DNA of 42,569 bases, taken from Bacteroidaceae bacterium (lineage in GTDB: Bacteria; Bacteroidota; Bacteroidia; Bacteroidales; Paludibacteraceae). Made by a program: the position numbers and the translations under genes. The stretch covers positions 48,337 through 90,905 of the forward strand of contig CAVKVE010000001.1 of NCBI GenBank assembly GCA_963659655.1, read 5' to 3'. Below, one piece after another: positions 23,920 to 42,569 of the stretch (its first letter is position 1; the number at the start of each line of letters is the position of its first letter). Below the pieces are notes generated by a model that saw nothing but the letters and a program-made list of their open reading frames with translations, searched no databases and had not been told where the DNA came from.

Positions 23920-26900
23920 CTATTTCACCTTTGTGCCGAGTACATTGTATATATGCCCGTTGTAGAGAATATATACCTGCCCGTTGCGGAGAACCTTGCG
24001 AGGCTGAGCCATCGTGCCGTCTTGTACGCTCTCCATGTCCGTCTTTTTTGGGTCTCTTACCAAGCGTACAGAGCATCCCCCGCTTCGGATACTTTCGCCC
24101 GAACAATTTACATCCGACTCCGTAAAATGTATGAGGTGTATGCGTTCGGCACTCCCATCCACCGAGATTCCGCAATGGTAACAGCCGATATTCGTCAGGG
24201 TTGTACCTATACGATAGCCTCCTACCGGCAAGAACACCGCTCCGTTTGCTTCCATCAGTGCCCAATCGGCTACCGTGAATGTATTTTCGGTGTAGGTGGT
24301 TGCAGCGGTGTTGTAGGTAATCGATTCCGGCTTATTCCATGTATCGGGCAGGATAACCACTCCGCTAACGCCCACAACAGTGGCGTGGAAATAGAGTGTT
24401 TCCGCATTCTCACGCTTGAAGAACAGGTAGTCCCATTCCGAAAGGGTCGGAGTACGCCATTTGTTCTTGTCCCCGTCTATCTCGTTCGTTCCCCAATCGA
24501 GGAAATCGCCCTGATAGTCCTCTTGATTCTTAGAAGTGCTGATACCCCACGGAGCCACTGCATCTTCGCCGCTCCAGCCGAATAGGTCAATCGTATGGTT
24601 CAGTATCGTGGTCGTGCCTACCGTTTTCACATTGTCCGAACCGATTATATCGAATTGGTTTTCAGCGAACTTCCATACCGAGTGGTCGGTGCATTGCAAG
24701 TTTCCTTGCGAGAAGAACACAGTGCGAGTGCTTGATACTGAGATCGGATACGCATCGTAGCGGCAAGGCAACAAGAATAGTGCCGAGATGGCCACATCGC
24801 TGTTTGGCATCACAAATTGATATGCGCCGTCTTCCGTTTGGGTGACAGCCACCTCGCTTGTCGCAGCCCCCGTTCCTTTCGTTACATGAATCGATTTGAG
24901 GTAGTAGTTTCCATCCGCCTCAGCCGTTATGGTGATTACCTCTCCCGGCATAGCCGTCGTGGCAGAAGCCGAGAGCGTACCACCCTCCGCGGTGCCGAGC
25001 GTAATGGTGTGCGATGCCACATCTTGCACCAAGCGAACAGCCATTCCAATGTAACTATCATCAAAACTTACGCCAATAGTAGATTGAGTGGCAGCAATAT
25101 AAAAGGATGTTACCCCACCTTTTTTGGCTGTTGATGACCAATAGAATCCACCTATATCCAATATGGTAGATGCGCCTGCTCGAGCGGCGGAGGCAGGAAG
25201 GAACACCGCTCCTGCGGCCTCCATCTGCGCCCACTGCGCAAGCGTGTAGGTGTTCACGGTGTAGTCCACCGACACCATCTTGCCTGCTGCGGTAAACGAA
25301 ATACCCTCCGGCGTGGTCCAATCGTCCGGCAGCAGCACGGCTCCGGTCGTACCATTGACCGTGGCAGGTCCATAGAGATCGGTAGCGTTCTCACGCGTCT
25401 TGAGCAGATAGTCCCATTCCAGATAGGCAGGAGTACGCCATGTATTGGCTGCGTCTTTGCCTATCGGATTCGTTCCCCAATCGGTAAATGTGGCATAATC
25501 TGTAGTGGTCGTACTTACTTTGGTAGGAGCATTGCCTGTTCCCCACCCAAATAGGTCTATTTTGTCGGCCAATCCCGAACCACTCCCGAAGGTAGACAGG
25601 TTTTTCGTGCCTAATGTGTCGTATTGATACGCTGCAAACTCCCACGATTTCGTGCTTTGGGTGTATTGCAAGTTGCCTTGAGCGAATACGATCTGCTTGC
25701 CTGCCGCCACGGTAAATGGGTGCATCACATACTGTTGCGGGTAGGCGAACACTGCCGACACCGTCACATTGCCCTGCGGTATGCTGAATCGATAGGTATT
25801 CTCATCCACTTGCGTGAAGATCACCTCCTCTGTCCCGCAGAGGATGCTCAATGAGCGGAGCAAGTACCCCTCATCGGGTGTCGCCGTAATAGTAACCACA
25901 TCCTGATACTGTCCCCTCTGCGTATCAGCTGTAAGCGTACCGTTTTCCGGAGTAGTCACTGTAATGCTGTATAGCGCCACATCCTCCACCAAGCGGACAT
26001 TCCGAGCCAAGTAAGCCGTCGTACCATTGCGTAACATCAACATTTCATCGGTAAAGGATACGGCTATCGGGGCGGATGCCTCAGCCGTCCAATAGCTTCC
26101 GCCCTGTGTCGTTTCCATCGCCGTACCATTGCGCCAGCCGCCCATAGGCAGGAACACCGCGCCTGCGGCTTCCATCTCGTCCCATTGAGCGAGGGTGTAG
26201 GTATTATGCGATGAGTTGTCTTTATTCGCATTCTCGGCGATGGTGGCAGATTTCCATGTCAGTCCGTTCTCGCTGCTTGGGTTGAACACAAGCCCCTGCG
26301 GCAGTTGCCATTGGTCGGGCAGCAGAATCAGTCCTTTCACTCCATCGACCGTACCGAAACCAAAGAGCTTGTCTGCATTGGAACGGGTACGCACGATATA
26401 GGTCCACTCCGCCTGCGTCAGGGTGCGCCAAGTGTCTGCCGCATCCCCGCCTATCTTATTCTTGCCCCAGTCCGCAAAGGTTCCCGAGTAGTCTGCATCG
26501 GTCGTCGAGGTACTCACGCCATACTGTGCCGTGGCGGTGCTACCGCTCCAGCCGAACAGGTCTATCTCTTCTGCCAGTTCCAATGTGCCGGCGTACGGGT
26601 GCGTCATGATGTTGTTTGCCCCTATCGTGTCGTATTGGTTGTTGGCGAAACTCCATACATTTTTGTATGGTTCATAATGCAGGTTACCTTTGGAGAAGCG
26701 CACCGCCTTGTCTGCTGCAACAGAGATGAGTTGCGGCGCATAGTGGCCGTCGCGTACAAATACGGCGGAGATAGTAACTATCGCGTCAGGCATAGTGAAC
26801 TGATATTGATTGTCCGTGCCTGCCACGGGCGTTACCAATACGCTCGCCTGCACGCCCACTACTCCTTTCTTGACCACAACCGTCTTCAGCGAATAGCCTG

Positions 26901-28602
26901 CGTCGGCATTGGCGGTAACGACAATCGTTGTCCCCGGCTCTGCGGGTGTGGTATCTGCGCTTATCGTACCGTTCTCGGTCTGTTGAACGGTTACCGTATA
27001 GGTCGATACATCTTGTGCCAATCGCACAGGGAGTGCAAAGTATCGATATGTCGAGGTGGTTGTAGAAAGGGTCTTCGTAGATGCTTTCCACCATACCGAA
27101 TAGACCGAATTATTGCCTGTGACCTCTGTGCTCGTACGATACCATAAGCCTGTCTTGACGGTGCTACCATCCCTCCAGCCTGCAGCAGGGAGGAATACAG
27201 CCCCGTTCTTTTCCATATCTGTCCATTGCGCATCGGTATAGACATTGACCGTATAGTCGCCGAGGGTATCCACTAATGTGAGTCCTGCCGGTGCCACCCA
27301 CTCATCGGGCAGTACCACCAATCCCTTCGTTGTGCCTACCATCGCAAAGCCGCATAGTTTCTTTGCATTAGGACGATTTTTAAGCAAGAATTTCCACTCA
27401 GCGGAAGACAGCGTCCGATAGGTGCCGGCCGCATAACTCTCGATAGTATTCTGCCCGTAGTCCAACAACGCAGTCAGGCCATAATCCGATTCCTCCTGCG
27501 ATAGCGAGACACCGTATGATACCGTCGAGCCCGTTCCGCTCCAGCCGAACAGGTCGATAGCGTTTTGATTGAGAATCTGCGTTCCCGTGGCGTCAGTCGT
27601 CACATTTGCTTCCCCGATATAGTCCGTCTGTTTCGATGCAAAATACCACTCGTTGGTACTGATGCTGTGCATCAGGTTTCCTGCCGAGAAAAGCACCTGT
27701 TTGCCCGATGTGTTAATGGTTATCGGCTTGGCAACATATTCCCGTGGCATCTCATAGTCTTTCACCAAACGAACCGCATTACCTCGACTCAATGGTGACG
27801 CCGTACCATAAGGGTAGCATGTATATTTGTTTATATACACAAACAAATGGTTGGACGTCGTTAGATATTTCGCCCAATAGCCCGCTTTGTCCAAATCGGT
27901 AACTGCAGTCCCGGTTCTCCATCCCGTCGTAGGCAAAAATACAGCCCCAGCAGCCTCCATAGTTTGCCACTGCGTTGCGGTATATACATTGTCCGTATAA
28001 TGGTTCTCCTTGTTCTCATCCTCGTAGCCATATCCCCATGGCGCTCCAAGTGTCGAACTCGGCGTAAAAGCAGCCCCTGCGGGCAGCACCCAGTCGTTAG
28101 GCAGGATGATGATTCCTGTGACATCGTTCACGGTGGCAAAAGCGAACAGCGATGCCGCATTGGCTCGTTGCCCCAACAGATATTGCCACTCCGGACAGGT
28201 CAGAGAATACCATGTATTGGCTTTGTCCGCACCTATCACATTGTTTCCCCAATCCACAAATACATCATTGTAATCATTCGCATCCGTCGAGGTACTGATA
28301 CCCCAAGCAGCCGGAGCGTAGGTGCTGTAGCCGAACAGGTCAATTTTGTCGGCAAGCACGGTGTTGCCCGTTGCGTCGGTGGTCACATTTGCCTCGCCGA
28401 GCACCTCCCATTGGTTGGCAGCGAACGCCCATGTATAGGTTCCGCTCTGTACGCCGGAGCATTGCAGGTTTCCCGGCGAAAAGACAACTTGCTTAGTGGC
28501 AGCCACCGAGAACGGGTGGGGCGAATAAGCAGACGGAGTTTGTGCCGTTGCACTTAGCAGCACGCATAGCATTACCGTAAGTAGAGAAATTAGCTTTTTC
28601 AT
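23920..28602 (-). CDS. 1560-aa secreted modular surface protein: 5 lectin-like (DUF1566/FISUMP-like) modules plus 3 beta-sandwich spacer domains
   Basis: Signal peptide MKKLISLLTVMLCVLLSATAQ. The block F(S/A)xGNLQ...W(A/S/E/K)FAxNQ...IDLFGW...DWG.N.I...WRT(L/P)...EW.YL...GAVFLPxxGxR...VRLVxD occurs five times. Y(T/S)(V/I)TV...G(T)(I/L)(S/T)A(D/S)...(V/I)(S/T)(I/V)SA(V/L)F domains occur three times. Confidence 0.85.
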   Translation of the reverse strand: MKKLISLLTVMLCVLLSATAQTPSAYSPHPFSVAATKQVVFSPGNLQCSGVQSGTYTWAFAANQWEVLGEANVTTDATGNTVLADKIDLFGYSTYAPAAWGISTSTDANDYNDVFVDWGNNVIGADKANTWYSLTCPEWQYLLGQRANAASLFAFATVNDVTGIIILPNDWVLPAGAAFTPSSTLGAPWGYGYEDENKENHYTDNVYTATQWQTMEAAGAVFLPTTGWRTGTAVTDLDKAGYWAKYLTTSNHLFVYINKYTCYPYGTASPLSRGNAVRLVKDYEMPREYVAKPITINTSGKQVLFSAGNLMHSISTNEWYFASKQTDYIGEANVTTDATGTQILNQNAIDLFGWSGTGSTVSYGVSLSQEESDYGLTALLDYGQNTIESYAAGTYRTLSSAEWKFLLKNRPNAKKLCGFAMVGTTKGLVVLPDEWVAPAGLTLVDTLGDYTVNVYTDAQWTDMEKNGAVFLPAAGWRDGSTVKTGLWYRTSTEVTGNNSVYSVWWKASTKTLSTTTSTYRYFALPVRLAQDVSTYTVTVQQTENGTISADTTPAEPGTTIVVTANADAGYSLKTVVVKKGVVGVQASVLVTPVAGTDNQYQFTMPDAIVTISAVFVRDGHYAPQLISVAADKAVRFSKGNLHYEPYKNVWSFANNQYDTIGANNIMTHPYAGTLELAEEIDLFGWSGSTATAQYGVSTSTTDADYSGTFADWGKNKIGGDAADTWRTLTQAEWTYIVRTRSNADKLFGFGTVDGVKGLILLPDQWQLPQGLVFNPSSENGLTWKSATIAENANKDNSSHNTYTLAQWDEMEAAGAVFLPMGGWRNGTAMETTQGGSYWTAEASAPIAVSFTDEMLMLRNGTTAYLARNVRLVEDVALYSITVTTPENGTLTADTQRGQYQDVVTITATPDEGYLLRSLSILCGTEEVIFTQVDENTYRFSIPQGNVTVSAVFAYPQQYVMHPFTVAAGKQIVFAQGNLQYTQSTKSWEFAAYQYDTLGTKNLSTFGSGSGLADKIDLFGWGTGNAPTKVSTTTTDYATFTDWGTNPIGKDAANTWRTPAYLEWDYLLKTRENATDLYGPATVNGTTGAVLLPDDWTTPEGISFTAAGKMVSVDYTVNTYTLAQWAQMEAAGAVFLPASAARAGASTILDIGGFYWSSTAKKGGVTSFYIAATQSTIGVSFDDSYIGMAVRLVQDVASHTITLGTAEGGTLSASATTAMPGEVITITAEADGNYYLKSIHVTKGTGAATSEVAVTQTEDGAYQFVMPNSDVAISALFLLPCRYDAYPISVSSTRTVFFSQGNLQCTDHSVWKFAENQFDIIGSDNVKTVGTTTILNHTIDLFGWSGEDAVAPWGISTSKNQEDYQGDFLDWGTNEIDGDKNKWRTPTLSEWDYLFFKRENAETLYFHATVVGVSGVVILPDTWNKPESITYNTAATTYTENTFTVADWALMEANGAVFLPVGGYRIGTTLTNIGCYHCGISVDGSAERIHLIHFTESDVNCSGESIRSGGCSVRLVRDPKKTDMESVQDGTMAQPRKVLRNGQVYILYNGHIYNVLGTKVK

Positions 28603-28853: not shown

Positions 28854-31679
28854 CTACATAGCTGCCCGCAGCGTAATACGAATACCGTTGCTTCGCCACC
28901 CTTTCAGTCTGTGCGAGTAGCCGTTTATGTCCGTCGCATCCAAGTGCGTGATACGCCGCACATAATCAATTCGTATAATTCGGAGGATGTTCTCCACGCC
29001 CACCGTAAATTCCATATACGGCATATAGGCGTGCTTCCCGTCGGAGAAGTCGGTGCGAGTAGGAATCACATCTCCATCTATGGTGAACGAGTTGGGCAGC
29101 ATATAGAGTCCCTCCGTCTTCTTTGGGTTGTTGCGGTCGCCGAGCCACCCTGCCAGAATGTGGAACGATGCCACTTCCCGCAGTTTGAGTACTTTGAGCC
29201 CCGGTATGCGGTTGAATATCAAGCCCTTCATGTAGTAGTTCAGGTGCAAATCCACATAGCGGTCGTACATAAACTCCAGCGGCTGCATCATGTTGAACGA
29301 TTTCGGGTCGAGCAGAATCGATTGGTTGGTCATCGGAGCAAACAACTTCGTGTAGGGTACCTTGCTGTCTGTTGCAATATAGCCAAAATCCCCGCTCACA
29401 TCCAAATGCCCAAACGCCGACAGCCAGAACCGTTTCTCGGCGGTGAACTGCATACGGTTGTAGAAATAGTGGTCTTCCAGTATGTAACCCATCTCGTTCG
29501 TAAAACGGAACACGGGCGCATCTTTCCACAAGTTGAACGGCGACTCTATTCCCTGTCGGTTGTTGTAGATATAGCCGCCGGGGCAGTAGCGCAACTGCAG
29601 CGTCCATTGCGCATCGTGGTAGTAGGGCGTTTCCTTGAAGGTATTGTTCATCACATACCGCAGCCGCAGCGGGTGGTCTTGGTCACGCATGGTGCCGTAG
29701 CCGCTCTGCAGCCAAGTCGAGCCGTTGGGTCGGTTGTTCATAAAGTCGAACCAAGTCAGAATAGAGAACTGATTTTCCCACTCTTTCTCGTAGGTCAGCC
29801 GCAGTTTCGCCACATATTGCATCGGCTTCGGCTGATAGTTAAACTTGATGGACATAAAAATGTGGTCACGGTCGAGCACCCGATAGGTCTGTCCCAACTC
29901 TTCGAGGTCATAACTTGCCATAAAAGCAATGTAGTGCCGCAGCGTCTGATAGGGGTGGTACTGTTTGGCGTTGAACGAGTAGAGAGCCGTCACAGCGCCT
30001 TTCACCTGCTTGTCCGCAAAGCCGTATGCAATATATTCGTTTGTAAACCAGTGCTTGTTTTGGTTCGCTGTTGTCATACCGCCCACACGCACACGGCAGC
30101 CCTCCTGCTCGTTGTAGCTGAAGGTCGTGAATATCGGGCCAAAGTCCCACTTACTCGAGTCGCGTTTCGAGGAGGTGGGTATAAACATACAGAGTAGGTC
30201 TTGCGCCGTATAGACCAACCGCCTGAATTTAGGCACTCGCATCAGTTCCACTTGCAGACTATCTACTACCGTTTCCTTTTTGGTCAGCCCTATCGGACGC
30301 AGCGAATCCCAAGTCGCCCGCTTCACCTTATCCGCATCGGGCAGAGTAATTTCCGAGCCGGTCATCACAAACAGGCTGTCGGGAATTGCCGAACCAAGGT
30401 CGTACCTACTGAAGTGCCGCGTCTGCCGAGCGTAGATGTTGTGTCTTGATTTCTTGCTTACGGCAAAGCGTATGTGCGTATTCATCTCCTCCGAGGCCCA
30501 CATACCGTTCTCCAATTGATAGAAGGTCTCCGAGATACTCATGTAGTTCACCCAGTTGAGGTTGATATGCGGCGGAATGTTTATCTTGTATCGTTTGAGC
30601 GCATAGGTCGAATCGTTCACGATATAGAGGTGTCCCGTAAATCCGAAGCTCTCGCTGTTGACCGGCACAAACGCCAAGTCGATACACGGCGTGTCCTCTA
30701 TCAGTACCGTGTCCATGATGTAGTAGTGATAGTAGCTCACCGCGAGCGACGACGACAGCGGGCTAACAAATCGGTTGAGCAGCAGGTTTATATCGTTCGA
30801 GAATATGTTCACGGGCTGGAACAGCGCATTCACATTGTTGTAAATACCGCCGTTGTCGAATAGTTTATCTAATCCTTCCCAACGCTTGGCTTTCACCACA
30901 CGCCGTTCCTTGCGGGGCGAAGCTTGCACATACTCGTCCGCCAGCGTCTCCCGCAGCGATACGGTCAGTATCGAGGTCTGATTGGCTTGCTCCACGGCAG
31001 CGTCTTTGGCGAGCACCACACTATCTACCCGCACGAGCGTAGTATCTCTATTGAGAGCCACGCTGTCTATCTGTACCTTTCCGCTGTCTATCACCAGCAC
31101 GCCGTCTTCTATCAGCATCGTGTCGGTGTAGTTGTATAGAAAGAGAAAGTCCCGCCAGAAAGCGTTCTTGTTCAGGTTGTAGTCAAAAGGTTCTATCGCC
31201 ATCACTAATTTTTCGTAGGTATCGGCTTTGTACGACACACTCCGCCCCACGCGGTTCTTGTCCTTGTTGGCTATCACATTCTTTATCAGTTCCACGGCGG
31301 GGTTGCCCTTGCGGCGATAGTGTTCCCGCTGCCGCTTGGGCTTCACCACCACATCTTGCAGCGCATACACTTCCGGCTCCATGGGCACAAATATCTCAGT
31401 CGCCTCGCCGGGCTTCACGGTGATGACCTTTTTCTTATAGCCCACCATCTGAAAGTACAGCGTTATCAGGTCTTTGTCGTTCTCCAGCGCAAAGTTTCCG
31501 TCAAGGTCGGAGGTGGTTCCGATAGAGGTACCTGCAAACACGATTTGCACAAAAGGCATGGTCTCGCCGGTGTTCACATCCACCACCGAGCCTGTCACGC
31601 GCGTGACAGCCGCCCACGCCGTCGAACCCACGCAAAGCCCGACCAACACACACACCATATAGCGCCACACCTGTTTCAT
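28854..31679 (-). CDS. DUF5686-like outer-membrane protein with an N-terminal carboxypeptidase-regulatory-like domain
   Basis: 941 aa. Signal peptide, then VTGSVVDVNTGETMPFVQIVFAGTSIGTTSDLDGNFAL (CarbopepD_reg-like), then a large beta-rich body ending ...NGIRITLRAAM. Confidence 0.75.
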   Translation of the reverse strand: MKQVWRYMVCVLVGLCVGSTAWAAVTRVTGSVVDVNTGETMPFVQIVFAGTSIGTTSDLDGNFALENDKDLITLYFQMVGYKKKVITVKPGEATEIFVPMEPEVYALQDVVVKPKRQREHYRRKGNPAVELIKNVIANKDKNRVGRSVSYKADTYEKLVMAIEPFDYNLNKNAFWRDFLFLYNYTDTMLIEDGVLVIDSGKVQIDSVALNRDTTLVRVDSVVLAKDAAVEQANQTSILTVSLRETLADEYVQASPRKERRVVKAKRWEGLDKLFDNGGIYNNVNALFQPVNIFSNDINLLLNRFVSPLSSSLAVSYYHYYIMDTVLIEDTPCIDLAFVPVNSESFGFTGHLYIVNDSTYALKRYKINIPPHINLNWVNYMSISETFYQLENGMWASEEMNTHIRFAVSKKSRHNIYARQTRHFSRYDLGSAIPDSLFVMTGSEITLPDADKVKRATWDSLRPIGLTKKETVVDSLQVELMRVPKFRRLVYTAQDLLCMFIPTSSKRDSSKWDFGPIFTTFSYNEQEGCRVRVGGMTTANQNKHWFTNEYIAYGFADKQVKGAVTALYSFNAKQYHPYQTLRHYIAFMASYDLEELGQTYRVLDRDHIFMSIKFNYQPKPMQYVAKLRLTYEKEWENQFSILTWFDFMNNRPNGSTWLQSGYGTMRDQDHPLRLRYVMNNTFKETPYYHDAQWTLQLRYCPGGYIYNNRQGIESPFNLWKDAPVFRFTNEMGYILEDHYFYNRMQFTAEKRFWLSAFGHLDVSGDFGYIATDSKVPYTKLFAPMTNQSILLDPKSFNMMQPLEFMYDRYVDLHLNYYMKGLIFNRIPGLKVLKLREVASFHILAGWLGDRNNPKKTEGLYMLPNSFTIDGDVIPTRTDFSDGKHAYMPYMEFTVGVENILRIIRIDYVRRITHLDATDINGYSHRLKGWRSNGIRITLRAAM

Positions 31680-37336: not shown

Positions 37337-37434
37337 GTGTGACGAGAGAGTGTGGTGCCGAGAGTATGGCGTCGAGAGCGGTGCGATGAGAGTGAGGCGC
37401 CGAGTGTATGGCAATGAGAGTACGGCATCGAGAA
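37337..37434. repeat. 7 x 14-bp degenerate tandem array (consensus TRTGGCRYCGAGAG)
   Basis: GTGTGACGAGAGAG TGTGGTGCCGAGAG TATGGCGTCGAGAG CGGTGCGATGAGAG TGAGGCGCCGAGTG TATGGCAATGAGAG TACGGCATCGAGAA. Confidence 0.85.
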
Positions 37435-38242: not shown

Positions 38243-38286
38243 GTAGGTGACCCGTAGGTGACTCGTAGGTGACTCGTAGGTGACCC
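38243..38286. repeat. 4 x 11-bp perfect-phase tandem array GTAGGTGACYC
   Basis: GTAGGTGACCC GTAGGTGACTC GTAGGTGACTC GTAGGTGACCC. Confidence 0.95.
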
Positions 38287-38371
38287 GTGTGGGGAACGAG
38301 GGGAGAAAAGACTATGTATTTTAGCAATACTCGGTTTTCGTAGGCCATATATGATAAAGTTGGTTAATTGT

Positions 38372-38405: not shown

Positions 38406-38413
38406 TAACTTTG
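38406..38413 (+). promoter_or_regulatory. Candidate -7 box (TAnnTTTG) for the FHA/kinase operon
   Basis: TAACTTTG lies 79 nt upstream of the ATG at 38492, with AT-rich sequence at the expected -33 position. Confidence 0.4.
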
Positions 38414-38491
38414 TAGCGATTAATTTTTTCGCCATAAAAGGTTACTCTTATAGCCATTGAGGACATAAGCTAAAAAAACAGATAAAAACCT

Positions 38492-39088
38492 ATGCGTTGT
38501 ACAGGATGCGGTTGGGAAAATCCCGACACCAACACCAAATGTGAGAAATGCGGGGCAAGCCTGCAGAGTGAAAACCGGAACTATGCCAATGCCCCTGCGG
38601 CAGGCAGTCCGCTAAACAAGACCCGTATCGAGGCGGAAGTATTCCCCGACCTTGCGGCTCCGCAGCCGGTAGCCCCCACTTGCCGTGAGGAAGAGCCTGC
38701 CTCTCCCGTTACTCCTACGCCCCACGCCGTGCATCAAGCGGCTCCTGCGGGCGGCTATCAGGGGACAGTCAATCCGTGGATACAGGTTGCGCCCAAGAGC
38801 CAATGCACACTGACCCCTATTCAGCAGGACACCGATGAGGCTGCGCCGAAAGCCATTTCCTTCAAGGGCGAGCAGCACATCCTCAATCGTGCCAATTTGG
38901 ACGAGGAGAACTACACCATTACCTCCAAGGTGCAAGCCGAACTTACTTGCGAGGACGGCGTATGGTATATTCAGGACGGCAGCCAACAGCAAACCACTTT
39001 TGTCCATGCGGGCAACAAGACCCCTCTCAAAGACGGCGATGTCGTGCTGATGGGCAACCGCCAATTCTTGTTCCATACCGATAAGTAG
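38492..39088 (+). CDS. Zinc-ribbon protein with a Pro/Thr-rich linker and a divergent C-terminal FHA domain
   Basis: N-terminus is MRCTGCGWENPDTNTKCEKCG (2 x CxxC). The C-terminus is GEQHILNRANLD...ITSKVQAEL...WYIQDGSQQQTTFV...LKDGDVVLMGNRQFLF. This follows FHA topology with non-canonical residues at some positions. Confidence 0.65.
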   Translation: MRCTGCGWENPDTNTKCEKCGASLQSENRNYANAPAAGSPLNKTRIEAEVFPDLAAPQPVAPTCREEEPASPVTPTPHAVHQAAPAGGYQGTVNPWIQVAPKSQCTLTPIQQDTDEAAPKAISFKGEQHILNRANLDEENYTITSKVQAELTCEDGVWYIQDGSQQQTTFVHAGNKTPLKDGDVVLMGNRQFLFHTDK

Positions 39089-39092
39089 TGCC

Positions 39093-40385
39093 ATGATAGC
39101 CAATCGATGTGATTATCGTGTAGGCGACAGCATCGGGCATTACCGTGTGCAGAAACAGCTCGGCGAGGGCGCATTCGGCATTGTATATAAGGTGTCGGAC
39201 CTCTCGTCGGGCAGTCCTCTTGCGCTCAAGTTGCTCAAACTATGGTCTATGGAGCCCGAACTGCGTGACCAACTCTCGCAGCGTTTCGACATGGAGTACG
39301 AGACCAGCCGTATCGATAGCCCCTATCTTGTTCATTCGGTGGGCAAAGGCATTACGGAGGGCAACCCCTATATAGTTATGGAGTTCTGCAACGGCGGCGA
39401 CCTCACTTCCGCTCCCCGCAATACCGATTGGACGCTTGTCGCGCGCCAAGTGCTGTTGGGGCTGCGTGCGCTGCACCGACACGGCAAGGTGCATCGCGAT
39501 CTCAAGCCGGAGAATGTCCTGCGCCGAGCCGATGGCACCGCCGTCCTGACTGATTTCGGTATCTCGGGCGACCGCAACCGGCGGCAGACCAAGATGGATG
39601 TACTCGGACGCCCCATGCAGGGCTTTGGCACCTACGCCTATATGCCGCCCGAGCAACTGCAGCTCAAGCGGGGCGAAGCCACCGTGTTGCCCACGACCGA
39701 TATTTTCTCGTTCGGCGTCATGATGTACCAACTGCTGACAGGCAAACTGCCCTTCGGGACGCTCGACAGCGAAGCCGATTTAGTTCTCTATATCAAACGG
39801 GCAAGCGAAGGCGATTGGAATCGCAGTCTGCTCTCGCTCTCTGCGCAGGGGACGACCTTTCTGCCTATCATTGATGGCTGCCTGCGCCCCGACTACAAGC
39901 AACGGTTGCAGTCGGTCGACGAGGTGCTTGCTTTGCTTCCTGCCACAGGCAACCCAATAGCCTCGGATTCCGATGCCGATTTTGGGGCATTTCTCGAAGC
40001 ATTCCAGAACGAACTCGCTATTTCGGGCTATCGTTTGCGTATCATGCAGGGCGAGGAATACGGCAAAACCTACGATCTCCCCGCTCGGCAATCCTGTACG
40101 CTCACGATGGGGCGCAAGAACAGCACCGTGCAGAACACACTCCCTATCGTGGAAGAGCAGAGCACTTACATCTCCCGCCGCCATTGCACGCTCCGCTACG
40201 ACGCTGCCTCCAACCTTTGGCAGATATACGACGGGCAGCAGGACGCCACCGCCTCCAACGGATGGCGGTATTCGCTCAACGGCACTTTTGTCAATTCCAC
40301 CGAGGTCGGTCCCTTTGGCTATTGGCTGCGTGTGGGCGATATCATCTCTATCGGCGATACCAAACTCCGTGTTGAGGCGTATTGA
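39093..40385 (+). CDS. Hanks-type Ser/Thr protein kinase with a C-terminal FHA domain
   Basis: GEGAFGIVYK (G-loop), ALKLLK (Lys), HRDLKPENVL, TDFGIS (DFG) and YMPPEQ. The C-terminal FHA is LTMGRKNS...YISRRHCTLRYD...SLNGTFVNS...VGDIISIGDTKLRV. The gene starts 4 nt after the previous stop. Confidence 0.9.
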   Translation: MIANRCDYRVGDSIGHYRVQKQLGEGAFGIVYKVSDLSSGSPLALKLLKLWSMEPELRDQLSQRFDMEYETSRIDSPYLVHSVGKGITEGNPYIVMEFCNGGDLTSAPRNTDWTLVARQVLLGLRALHRHGKVHRDLKPENVLRRADGTAVLTDFGISGDRNRRQTKMDVLGRPMQGFGTYAYMPPEQLQLKRGEATVLPTTDIFSFGVMMYQLLTGKLPFGTLDSEADLVLYIKRASEGDWNRSLLSLSAQGTTFLPIIDGCLRPDYKQRLQSVDEVLALLPATGNPIASDSDADFGAFLEAFQNELAISGYRLRIMQGEEYGKTYDLPARQSCTLTMGRKNSTVQNTLPIVEEQSTYISRRHCTLRYDAASNLWQIYDGQQDATASNGWRYSLNGTFVNSTEVGPFGYWLRVGDIISIGDTKLRVEAY

Positions 40386-40466
40386 TGCCCGCAGCACCAT
40401 AACCTACCCCTGCTAAAAACAACAGAAAAACAATATACAAATTCAATCTCAAAAAACCAACCCAAT

Positions 40467-41111
40467 ATGAATGCAATTACAGTCGGGCGCAGCCCCGAAA
40501 ACACCATTGTTGTCAGTCCAAACTACACCACCGTTAGCGGACGCCATCTGACCATTACACAAGCCAACGGGCAACTCTACTTGCAAGACCACAGCACCAA
40601 CGGCACCTACATCAATGGGCAATTTGTCCATAACAATCAACAGATTGCCATCACTCCATACGACACCATCACGCTCGGGCGGGAATACCACCTCGATATG
40701 TCAGCCGTCGTGCGTGCATTGCAACCCACTGCCGGCGGCGGGCGAGAAACAATGCTTCGTCAGCCCCAAGAACCGAGGTATGTGGATCCTCCATTCACAC
40801 CGCAGCCCGCAGAAACGCCGCACCGTGCCGAGCCCAAGAACTTGAATTCCTTCAACTGGGGTGCATTTTGGCTCAATTGGCTATGGGCAGTTTGCCACAG
40901 TGTATGGTGGGGATTGCTTGGTTTCATCCCAATTGTCGGCATCATTATTCCCTTCGTGTTGGGATTCAAAGGCAACCGTGCTGCTTGGGAAAAGTTCAGT
41001 GGCACGGCTGAGGAATTCGAGCGTAAGCAAGCAGCATGGAGTAAATGGGGGTGGATTATATTCGTAGTTTCATTGGTTCTCTATATTATAGTTACTTTGG
41101 CAGATATATAA
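40467..41111 (+). CDS. FHA-domain protein with a C-terminal multi-pass membrane anchor
   Basis: ITVGRSPENTIVV...VSGRHLTI...LQDHSTNGTYINGQ (canonical FHA). A Pro-rich linker follows, then hydrophobic spans FNWGAFWLNWLWAVCHSVWWGLLGFIPIVGIIIPFVLGF and WGWIIFVVSLVLYIIVTL. Confidence 0.85.
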   Translation: MNAITVGRSPENTIVVSPNYTTVSGRHLTITQANGQLYLQDHSTNGTYINGQFVHNNQQIAITPYDTITLGREYHLDMSAVVRALQPTAGGGRETMLRQPQEPRYVDPPFTPQPAETPHRAEPKNLNSFNWGAFWLNWLWAVCHSVWWGLLGFIPIVGIIIPFVLGFKGNRAAWEKFSGTAEEFERKQAAWSKWGWIIFVVSLVLYIIVTLADI

Positions 41112-41124
41112 AACCCACCCAACT

Positions 41125-42569
41125 ATGGCACAAACCAACTACAAGCGCACACTGACGGGGTCAGTCGGCGCAGGATTAGGATCTGTATTCTCCGCTAACG
41201 GCAAGAGTTACTACATCTTGGAGCATAAGGTGTCCTCCAAGTACCACCACGCAGGCGAGGCACAAGAGATTATCGTCGATGAGGCAGAACTCGGGCGTGA
41301 CGCCAAATGCCAAGTGCAGTTCGACGAGTCGTTCACTACGGTCAGCCGTCGCCATGCGGCGATTGTGCGTGACGGCGAGAACTGGAAACTCGTGCAATTG
41401 AGCCAAACCAACAAGACTTTCCTCAACGGACACCCCGTCACCTCGGAGTGGTACTTGCAGAACGGCGATGAGATACAACTCTCCGTCAATGGTCCCAAAC
41501 TCGGCTTTATCATTCCACAGGGGGCAAAAGCCAAGACGGGCAGTATTGCGCTCTCTCGCCGCTTGAGCCTATTCCGCCAGCAGGCACTCCGCCCGTACAA
41601 GGCCGCCATGACGGCTATGGCGGTCGTCATCGTGCTGCTGATAGGCGGCGGCACGGGTGTCGGTATTTGGCTCGGCAAGGAAAACGCCAAACTCAAAGAG
41701 GGTGCGGCGCTTACCCAAACGCAAATCAACGAGGCGCAACTGGCACTCGCCGAGGCACAAGCCAAGCAGGCAGATTTGAGCCGCGAACTGAATAAGACCA
41801 AACGCGACCTCACCAAAGCCATACAATCTCTGCCTCAGCAGACCACCGATCCGGAAGCAGTCCCGAAAGTGAATGCTGTTTCCACGACGGGCAACGCCGC
41901 TCTCGACGCCGTGCTGCCTTACATCTACTTTGTCTATATCCGTAAAGTGGAACTCTCCTTCGAGGGGCAAACCAAGACGATAGAGGGTTTAGGCTCCGGC
42001 ACAGGTTTCCTCTTGAGCGACGGCCGCTTTGTTACGGCCCGTCATGTGATAGAGCCGTGGATGTTCCCGTCGGGCGATGACGATACGCAGAACATTGCCA
42101 TCAACGCCATTGCCCACAGTGGCGGCACGGTTAAGTGCTATATTGATGCCTATTCGCCTACGGGCAAGCAACTGCATTTCGTTTCGACCAATGCCAAGAC
42201 CGACCGTTCTTCCGATAAACGCTATGCGTTGGACGGTGGGGCGACTATCGCCATTCCGCAGGAACTCTCTGCCGACTGGGCATCGTTCCGTACGAGCGAG
42301 CAGGGTGGGTTGGCATTCCACAACGCTTTGAGCCGAGAACTGAAGATGACCACCGAACTGCAAGTCTTGGGCTATCCGTTGGGTCTTGGAGCGAACTCGC
42401 CCACCGACATCAGTCCTATCTTTGCGACGGCGCAAGTGGCGAAACAGGGATTGGAGCATGGCATGATTGCCACCACCAATTCGGGCTACGAGCATGGCAA
42501 CAGCGGTGGACCCGTCTTCGCCACTACCACAGACGGCAAACTATTGGTAGTCGGATTGGTTTCTTCCGG
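41125..42569 (+). CDS. FHA - TM - coiled coil - trypsin-like (S1/S1C-type) serine protease; 3' end outside the window
   Basis: Not in the ORF track because no stop falls inside the window. My own translation from ATG 41125 gives MAQTNYKRTL...AELGRDAKCQV...VSRRHAAIVRD...SQTNKTFLNGHPV (FHA). Then TM AAMTAMAVVIVLLIGGGTGVGIWLG, then coiled coil INEAQLALAEAQAKQADLSRELNKTKRDL. The protease part has GSGTGFLLSDGRFVTARHV (His), ADWASF (Asp) and GYEHGNSGGPVF (Ser). Confidence 0.85.
   Translation, partial: MAQTNYKRTLTGSVGAGLGSVFSANGKSYYILEHKVSSKYHHAGEAQEIIVDEAELGRDAKCQVQFDESFTTVSRRHAAIVRDGENWKLVQLSQTNKTFLNGHPVTSEWYLQNGDEIQLSVNGPKLGFIIPQGAKAKTGSIALSRRLSLFRQQALRPYKAAMTAMAVVIVLLIGGGTGVGIWLGKENAKLKEGAALTQTQINEAQLALAEAQAKQADLSRELNKTKRDLTKAIQSLPQQTTDPEAVPKVNAVSTTGNAALDAVLPYIYFVYIRKVELSFEGQTKTIEGLGSGTGFLLSDGRFVTARHVIEPWMFPSGDDDTQNIAINAIAHSGGTVKCYIDAYSPTGKQLHFVSTNAKTDRSSDKRYALDGGATIAIPQELSADWASFRTSEQGGLAFHNALSRELKMTTELQVLGYPLGLGANSPTDISPIFATAQVAKQGLEHGMIATTNSGYEHGNSGGPVFATTTDGKLLVVGLVSS

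Follow-up and report, generated by a model that had tools for sequence, protein, structure and literature searches.

An FHA domain and a PDZ-less HtrA-like protease predicted on opposite sides of the inner membrane in a Bacteroidales Ser/Thr phospho-signalling gene cluster

In this report we analyzed a 42,569-nucleotide (nt) stretch of DNA, hereafter the window, from a Bacteroidaceae bacterium placed by GTDB in the Paludibacteraceae (contig CAVKVE010000001.1), and focused on the gene that runs off its 3' end (41125..42569, plus strand, as are all features described below unless stated otherwise), which we call gene D. It seems secure that gene D encodes a bitopic inner-membrane protein of predicted topology, with a functional-looking phosphothreonine (pThr) reader on the cytoplasmic side and an HtrA-like protease that lacks a PDZ domain on the other, in a dedicated operon of kinase, PP2C phosphatase, and multiple FHA genes. 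The probable role of the protein is to couple, across the inner membrane, Ser/Thr phospho-signalling with proteolysis. In the model that we prefer, to which we assign a probability of about one half, pThr-driven clustering of the gene D protein gates or positions the periplasmic protease; the pThr ligand, the oligomerization-dependent activation, the direction of the signal, and the substrates are parts of this model that we infer.

Gene D is a real gene, and its product is an uncharacterized and widespread Bacteroidales membrane protein. Translation from the ATG at 41125 to the last base of the window gives 481 of ~497 codons without a stop, plus two spare bases, which bears out an earlier note on this DNA according to which the frame stays open to the edge and had been missed by the open reading frame (ORF) track; ORFs running off an end are not listed, hence its absence. 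A homology search with the protein returned 2,445 relatives. The best of them and closest full-length relative, P0001 (497 amino acids [aa]), is identical at 459 of 481 positions without indels (95% for the protein, ~90% for the DNA) and ends normally 16 codons past the window with the tail ...GAGRGLGLIVPIAAVK, so that the window copy lacks the final 16 residues. Full-length relatives measure 488–505 aa in the close clade and mostly 490–600 aa in the wider family. The suggestion that a PDZ or other substrate-selection domain might follow downstream did not hold: P0001 leaves no room for an extra C-terminal domain, and neither PDZ nor any other extra Pfam domain occurs in the full-length relatives among the matches listed. 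Nor is there any sign of the frameshift or premature stop that would have marked a pseudogene, since P0001 aligns without indels and terminates normally. The domain order read earlier from the letters alone—FHA, one transmembrane (TM) helix, coiled coil, and S1 protease—agrees with Pfam, hydrophobicity, an AlphaFold2 (AF2) model, and a heptad test.

The N-terminal half of the protein contains the putative pThr reader and is its most constrained part. Conservation was read from alignment A1, which holds 37 homologs that are 48–72% identical to P0001, and counts of triad and FHA residues were made over the 375 members of at least 430 aa. The FHA domain (41203..41508; aa ~27–128) is matched by Pfam FHA (PF00498) over aa 56–119 with 59.2 bits against a cut-off of 20.7 (E value 5.6e-16), and a profile search of the PDB with the N-terminal half finds FHA structures of GarA, OdhI, and Rv0020c at ~1e-5. 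The canonical FHA residues G57-R58, S74, H77, and N96 are invariant across the 37 aligned homologs, and the pThr-binding residues R58, S74, H77, and N96, whose codons we checked in the window, are retained in 372–375 of the 375 members. Judging by these residues, the domain is a functional-looking, canonical phosphothreonine reader with pThr as its presumed ligand. It is preceded by a conserved Thr/Ser/Gly-rich tail (41125..41202; aa 1–26, MAQTNYKRTLTGSVGAG...), which carries the conserved motif T-(x)-Y-K-R-[ST]-[LF]-x-G-S-[VI]-G-[AS]-G and has a Thr within residues 2–8 in 352 of 373 members; by analogy with GarA and OdhI, this tail is a plausible candidate phospho-acceptor. The FHA domain is followed by a highly conserved basic juxtamembrane segment (41509..41601; aa 129–159, ...SRRLSLFRQQALRPYK) that bears the positive charge on the N side of the TM helix. 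The mean frequency of the major residue is 0.80 in the tail, 0.89 in the FHA domain, and 0.85 in the juxtamembrane segment, versus 0.67 in the protease, 0.54 in the TM helix, and 0.36 in the stalk, which is the least conserved region, so that the strongest constraint falls on the half predicted to be cytoplasmic.

The C-terminal half is an HtrA-like S1 protease domain (41920..42569), of which aa 266–481 are seen and 16 residues are missing. Pfam Trypsin_2 (PF13365) matches aa 292–473 with 37.8 bits (cut-off 27.6). The three motifs that had been picked out earlier are present and invariant in the 37 close-clade homologs, namely TARHV with H307 (codon 42043–45), DWASF with D384 (42274–76), and GNSGGPVF with S460 (42502–04), the last including the oxyanion motif GNSGGP. 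The triad residues line up with those of S1C proteases (HtrA/DegQ), which settles the alignment check that had been proposed for them: in a search of the PDB with a profile of the C-terminal half, Mycobacterium tuberculosis HtrA1 (5.7e-6) and DegQ (8.4e-6) are matched such that their Asp and Ser motifs fall opposite those of the family, while TNNHV of DegQ is the counterpart of the His motif. The family profile was needed for this, the protease half as a single sequence giving marginal matches only (E ~0.02). The AF2 model of aa 260–497 is confident, with a predicted local distance difference test score (pLDDT) of ~90, and has the double β-barrel of the chymotrypsin fold. Its best Foldseek match is the HtrA1 protease domain (E 4.6e-10; TM-score 0.64, normalized to target length), followed by HtrA2, HtrA3, and then DegP (3mh5), with MarP/Rv3671c also among the top matches. 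There are 337 PDB structure matches at E ≤ 1e-3, and those listed are S1-type proteases. An intact His-Asp-Ser triad is found in 351 of the 375 members (94%), which, together with the invariance of the triad and of GNSGGP in the window's clade, argues that catalysis is under selection in most lineages.

That the two domains should lie on opposite sides of the membrane, as the earlier note had proposed, is well supported as a prediction, with hydrophobicity, flank charges, and lack of a signal peptide all in agreement. The protein has one hydrophobic segment (aa ~157–185, Kyte-Doolittle maximum 2.2–2.4), from which we place a single TM helix at 41602..41676 (aa ~160–184). In each of the 37 homologs, hydrophobicity peaks in this segment (aa ~157–186; 19-residue Kyte-Doolittle maximum 1.84–2.84), and the only other windows above threshold are C-terminal β-strands of the protease core, and none of the 37 has an N-terminal signal peptide. 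In the 15-residue flanks of the helix, the mean numbers of K+R and D+E are 3.6 and 0.03 on the N side and 2.35 and 2.49 on the C side; this asymmetry (+3.6 versus ~0) is present in every homolog, and the hydrophobicity of the segment is kept where its sequence is not. By the positive-inside rule these flank charges give an N-in/C-out orientation, with the FHA domain predicted in the cytoplasm, on the side of the kinases and ATP, and the protease predicted outside it. Here "outside" would be the periplasm, because the window encodes LpxD and the envelope is therefore diderm. The helix continues into a variable region (41677..41919) that comprises a helical coiled-coil stalk (aa ~185–236) and a flexible linker (aa ~237–265). 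AF2 draws aa 156–235 as a single uninterrupted helix, that is, the TM helix plus a stalk of ~50 residues, and the heptad periodicity of the stalk exceeds that of shuffled sequences (mean z 2.56, 37 homologs). The spacer between TM helix and protease ranges from 72 to 141 residues among homologs. The PP2C and membrane kinases of the cluster described below are laid out likewise, their catalytic domain being N-terminal and separated by one TM helix from an outer part at the C terminus.

Another significant finding is the genomic context of gene D, the most informative part of the picture, which the earlier note overlooked in mentioning gene D alone. Gene D comes last in a row of four adjacent FHA genes that share a strand (38492–42569), with gaps of 4, 81, and 13 nt between them. 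Gene A (38492..39088; 198 aa) encodes a zinc ribbon followed by a C-terminal FHA domain (Pfam Zn_Ribbon_1 5.5e-6, FHA 8.9e-5); it has no hydrophobic segment and is cytoplasmic. Gene B (39093..40385; 430 aa) encodes a soluble Hanks-type Ser/Thr kinase with a C-terminal FHA domain (Pfam Pkinase 2.5e-39, FHA 2.7e-10), with HRDLKPEN and DFG motifs readable in the translation and no TM helix. Gene C (40467..41111; 214 aa) encodes an N-terminal FHA domain (Pfam 7.8e-16) followed by two C-terminal TM helices (hydrophobic segments at aa 139–170 and 190–214). Trp is abundant in the two-TM module of gene C (40884–41111; FNWGAFWLNWLWAVCHSVWWGLLGF...), for which Pfam gave nothing at E ≤ 0.01. We followed the cluster by tblastn over the window and 80 species-level genome loci (81 in total, many of them cut by contig ends), and found gene D in all 81, gene B in 77, gene A, as the first cluster gene upstream of the protease gene, in 75, and PP2C in 73, while gene C occurs in 31, chiefly in the window's own (Paludibacteraceae-type) clade. 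The core order A-B-(C)-D-PP2C-kinase is conserved in ~75 of the 81. In the relatives' contigs, the genes on the 3' side of gene D include those for a PP2C that has a TM helix, for a kinase that combines a TM helix with an outer domain, and for a further, tail-anchored kinase, a downstream kinase of either of the two types being present in most loci that are long enough. Also found there are signal-peptide proteins with TPR, Sel1, or BACON domains and, in one locus, a fusion of BACON to an outer-membrane protein (OMP) β-barrel. Neither cell-wall synthesis genes nor secretion-system genes were found in the cluster.

The cluster behaves as a self-contained unit, since DNA similarity to the nearest contigs (L001, L002, L003, and L008; ~89.7%) starts at 38484, 8 nt ahead of gene A, and synteny with them is lacking upstream, where they carry GalK, AAA, and AbiEii genes and the window carries acetyl-CoA hydrolase, Sua5, and sugar transferase genes. 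In more distant relatives, the cluster sits in yet other genomic neighbourhoods. The 1.3-kb gap on the 5' side of the cluster in the window holds two short tandem repeats, one with 4.2 copies of GTAGGTGACCC at 94% match (38243–38288) and another, degenerate one with a 14/28-nt unit, GAGAGTA..GGC (37346–37433), and at 38406–38413, 79 nt before gene A, TAACTTTG matches the Bacteroidetes -7 promoter consensus TAnnTTTG. The remaining window encodes housekeeping functions (MutS, FabF, Asd, LpxD, pyruvate kinase, RmuC, and Sua5), and a search of the whole window with Rfam gave no match. On the minus strand, the window also encodes a protein of 1,560 aa with three divergent InlB B-repeat (Flg_new_2) domains that is otherwise unannotated (23920–28602) and, adjoining it, a CarboxypepD_reg/DUF5686 protein of 941 aa (28854–31679).

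In other clades, the gene for the FHA-TM-S1 protein has a neighbour that bears on how the protease fold may be used. In 49 loci among L035–L087, it is directly followed by a gene for a signal-peptide protein of ~280 aa, which we call Y (for example, L059 5983–6819 and L068 11535–12410). Y is found in most non-Paludibacteraceae clades and is missing from that of the window, which tends to carry gene C instead. It has no Pfam match and no sequence match in the PDB, and profile-profile comparison with the protease family is not significant (1.9% probability). Structure search alone reveals its S1 fold: the AF2 model (pLDDT 82) has matches, with E values from 1.6e-4, to the protease domains of HtrA, Deg, and DegS proteins as well as to trypsin-like subunits of the Umb1 particle. 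Y has no conserved His or Ser and the triad is missing. On the strength of this model, Y is a predicted secreted pseudo-S1 protein with a degenerate HtrA-like fold.

The family is large. Relatives occur in 323 species representatives of the genome collection, and the best 80 of these 323, for which taxonomy was read, are almost all metagenome-assembled genomes (MAGs) of Bacteroidales/Bacteroidota, including those of Paludibacteraceae, Prevotellaceae, Bacteroidaceae, Muribaculaceae, Rikenellaceae, and Tannerellaceae. When 1.84 billion representatives were searched exhaustively with a profile, the matches with E ≤ 1e-30 amounted to 406 clusters at 50% identity, almost all of them 490–600 aa long and matched end to end in one piece; members were listed individually for E values up to 1e-99. 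Several loci (L008, L009, L010, L014, L016, L017, and L062) carry the cluster at up to 99% identity in bins titled as unlikely taxa, such as Azospirillum sp. CAG:239 (99% identity), Firmicutes bacterium CAG:95, and Acutalibacteraceae; these are probably mis-binned or mislabelled MAGs. The names of relatives in their sources are generic ("FHA domain-containing protein," "S1-C subfamily serine protease," "hypothetical protein"), and NCBIfam has no family-level model for gene D, giving only sub-threshold matches to FHA and protease pieces. Full-text searches of the literature turned up neither an FHA-TM-S1 protease nor the gene cluster: an eLife 2021 paper on conflict systems mentions FHA and trypsin-like domains separately only, and a preprint presenting a bacterial kinome atlas holds nothing on Bacteroidota or proteases.

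How might such a protein work? In the model that we prefer, the kinases of the cluster would write pThr marks and PP2C would erase them, the marks being placed on the juxtamembrane regions of the kinases, on the tails of FHA proteins, or on both. Through its FHA domain, the gene D protein would dock on these marks and would thereby be recruited to, and clustered in, a membrane signalling complex. The coiled-coil stalk would then relay the state of assembly across the membrane, where periplasmic proteolysis would be gated or positioned by it. We propose gating by assembly because HtrA-type proteases are switched by oligomerization and allostery. Likely targets would be the outer parts of the cluster's own kinase or phosphatase, or co-encoded secreted proteins. 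As to the outward direction of the signal, an adaptor or outside-in role for the gene D protein is equally open, because the FHA/juxtamembrane half is the most conserved part and several protease-dead lineages keep the FHA domain. More tentatively still, and with clearly less confidence than we place in the clustering model itself, the cluster as a whole might be an undescribed Bacteroidales trans-envelope Ser/Thr phospho-signalling machine, in which pThr-dependent assembly of FHA proteins would gate an HtrA-like protease inside-out and pseudoprotease paralogs, fused or secreted, would act as regulatory subunits.

Several observations weigh against this account. The triad is lost in 24 of the 375 members, which fall into at least 8 sequence clusters (P0134–P0270) and include versions with TARRV...GNDGAPV, TARQN with the Asp lost, and TARSN, and all 24 keep R58, S74, and H77 of the FHA domain, which argues that proteolysis is not a universally conserved output. 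Pseudoprotease versions thus appear, from their sequences, to have arisen repeatedly, the protein in the window and its own clade being intact. The AF2 model of the FHA region (residues 1–130) has a very low pLDDT of 24–65 despite the strong Pfam match; the cause may be the shallow, low-diversity alignment of 37 sequences. The topology is based on hydrophobicity and charge rules. Finally, the named relatives are all MAG proteins, with no member from a cultured or model organism among them.

Other explanations have to be weighed against pThr-driven clustering. In the main one, signalling runs the other way. Here the periplasmic S1 fold would be chiefly an adaptor or sensor, bound or triggered by a peptide or protein in the way that DegS senses the C termini of OMPs, and the FHA domain would be the output, capturing or releasing phosphorylated kinases or FHA partners, with proteolysis secondary or dispensable. 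We regard this as possible rather than probable. It would explain why conservation is highest in the FHA and juxtamembrane half and why lineages that recurrently lost the triad retain R58, S74, and H77, and the secreted, triad-less S1-fold protein Y encoded next to the gene in 49 loci of other clades suggests S1–S1 binding rather than catalysis alone. Yet the triad and GNSGGP are invariant in the window's clade and the triad is intact in 351 of the 375 members, and a single TM helix followed by a poorly conserved stalk makes a weak conduit for a conformational signal. The kinship of the fold raises another explanation, in which the gene D protein is an envelope housekeeping protease for HtrA/MarP-like quality control or cell-wall remodelling and its FHA domain merely tethers it near the Ser/Thr kinases. 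In fold, the protein is indeed nearest to MarP and to proteases of the HtrA family, the PP2C-TM and kinase-TM proteins are built like the PstP and PknB types, and the layout recalls the actinobacterial envelope operon, in which the gene order is fhaA-fhaB-pstP-rodA-pbpA-pknA-pknB. We nevertheless think it unlikely, since the protein has no PDZ domain with which to recognize misfolded C termini, the cluster carries no cell-wall synthesis genes, and the strict co-occurrence with four FHA domains, 2–3 kinases, and PP2C in ~75 loci, together with the extreme conservation of the pThr pocket, points to a dedicated regulatory link.

The variability around gene D could also be read as a sign of conflict or defence, with the cluster sensing attack on the surface by phage, epibionts, or competitors and the protease serving as the effector arm, in analogy to Esr or to kinase-based anti-phage modules. 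The slot after gene D holds Y, an unrelated secreted protein of 225 aa, or nothing, the TPR, Sel1, and BACON partners vary as well, and the genomic context differs among close relatives. Moreover, the kinases resemble mad6 and PD-T4-6 of PADLOC, the protease resembles the protease domain of RT-Protease_XI (1.9e-9), one locus has a weak HEPN match, and there is a conceptual parallel in the Esr work (PMC13622651). The PADLOC matches, however, reflect generic kinase and protease similarity and not a system: genes A, C, X, and Y were unmatched, so that the cluster could not be assigned to any PADLOC defence system. MoxR/vWA, nuclease, toxin, and restriction components are absent from it, and the cluster lies amid housekeeping genes and is vertically widespread in Bacteroidales, all of which makes a defence role rather improbable in our view. 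The least probable reading by far, and one that we would hardly defend, places both domains in the cytoplasm by means of a peripheral or re-entrant anchor or an inverted topology, the FHA domain feeding pThr-marked substrates to a phospho-degron protease. The bare combination of domains is what speaks for it. Against it stand the 25-residue segment with its high hydrophobicity and the asymmetry of its flank charges in 37 of 37 homologs, its position in one straight 80-residue helix in the AF2 model, a long and variable coiled-coil spacer that suits spanning of the periplasm, and the signal peptide carried by the neighbouring same-fold protein Y.

Signalling by Hanks kinases, PP2C, and FHA proteins has barely been studied in Bacteroidales, a dominant order in the gut and rumen. 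The known bacterial outputs of such signalling are cytoplasmic enzymes, transcription factors, transporters, and secretion ATPases. What our analysis adds is a large and architecturally constant family in which a single TM helix joins a pThr reader with a protease or pseudoprotease in the periplasm, an arrangement that would offer a compact link, usable either way, between phosphorylation in the cytoplasm and proteolysis beyond it. For experiments, the system is tractable, with a defined operon, natural protease-dead variants, and obvious point mutants (R58A, S74A, and S460A). If the inside-out model is true, the family would represent a new class of output for bacterial Ser/Thr signalling; if it is false, the family is still a new membrane-anchored, PDZ-less branch of HtrA-like proteases.

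Comparison with known systems indicates that gene D combines known modules in an arrangement that we did not find described, and that it lies outside the HtrA (in the strict sense), MarP, SctD, TagH, and FhaB families. With the HtrA family (DegP, DegQ, DegS, and human HtrA1–3; MEROPS S1C) it shares the chymotrypsin-fold protease, with alignable motifs around Ser (GNSGGP), Asp (TD-x-A), and His (T-x-x-HV). The similarity in sequence is remote (profile E ~1e-5, ~18% identity) and, unlike the HtrA family, which is defined by at least one C-terminal PDZ domain, gene D has none, so that membership in the strict sense is rejected. Within this family, DegS resembles the gene D protein in layout, a TM helix near the N terminus anchoring it in the inner membrane with its protease facing the periplasm; it has, however, few cytoplasmic residues, in contrast to the 160-residue FHA module and long coiled-coil stalk of the gene D protein. 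MarP (Rv3671c) from M. tuberculosis is likewise a membrane-anchored, PDZ-less periplasmic S1 protease, with a role in envelope signalling or remodelling, and is found among the structural matches (3lt3 and 3k6z). It differs in having four N-terminal TM helices rather than one and no FHA domain, and the MarP family model (NCBIfam NF033740) gives 16 bits against a cut-off of 250.

The coupling of a cytoplasmic phospho-reader to an outer domain, which the earlier note had called unusual, has precedents in its general form, whereas a protease as the outer domain is the part for which we found none. SctD of type III secretion systems (T3SS; YscD/MxiG/PrgH) begins with an FHA fold in the cytoplasm, crosses the membrane once, and ends in the periplasm (PMC3162421), a layout that it has in common with gene D. 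Its periplasmic part, however, is made up of ring-building motifs rather than an enzyme, and pThr binding is absent from several FHA folds of SctD. The match of gene D to the SctD model (Pfam PF16697 Yop-YscD_cpl) is near the threshold, at 32.3 versus 33.2 bits, and there is no T3SS context. Gene clusters with several FHA proteins, a PP2C-TM, and a kinase-TM are found both in the actinobacterial envelope operon and in Esr threat sensing. According to a 2026 preprint on Esr, FHA proteins fused to many different domains, Zn-finger-FHA among them, serve as "outputs" of a kinase and a phosphatase (PMC13622651). Both systems belong to another phylum with a monoderm/mycolate envelope and have no FHA-protease fusion, and Esr needs MoxR/vWA and β-propeller sensors, none of which is present in the gene D cluster; the FhaB-FipA model (NF049868) gives 35.5 versus 125 bits, by similarity of the FHA domain only. 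Parallels in logic are offered by membrane machines under FHA-pThr control, namely TssL-pThr/Fha-TagH with PpkA/PppA in type VI secretion systems (PMC3953482), the ABC exporter Rv1747 (PMC5549992), and EssC of Firmicutes (PMC9436818). The TagH model (TIGR03354) gives 29.1 versus 120 bits, again by FHA-domain similarity only. In these systems, as is proposed for gene D, a Hanks kinase and PP2C write and erase pThr, an FHA domain reads it, and an activity that spans the envelope is switched, but what is switched in them is secretion or transport, powered by ATPases in the cytoplasm, whereas in gene D it would be a protease across the membrane.

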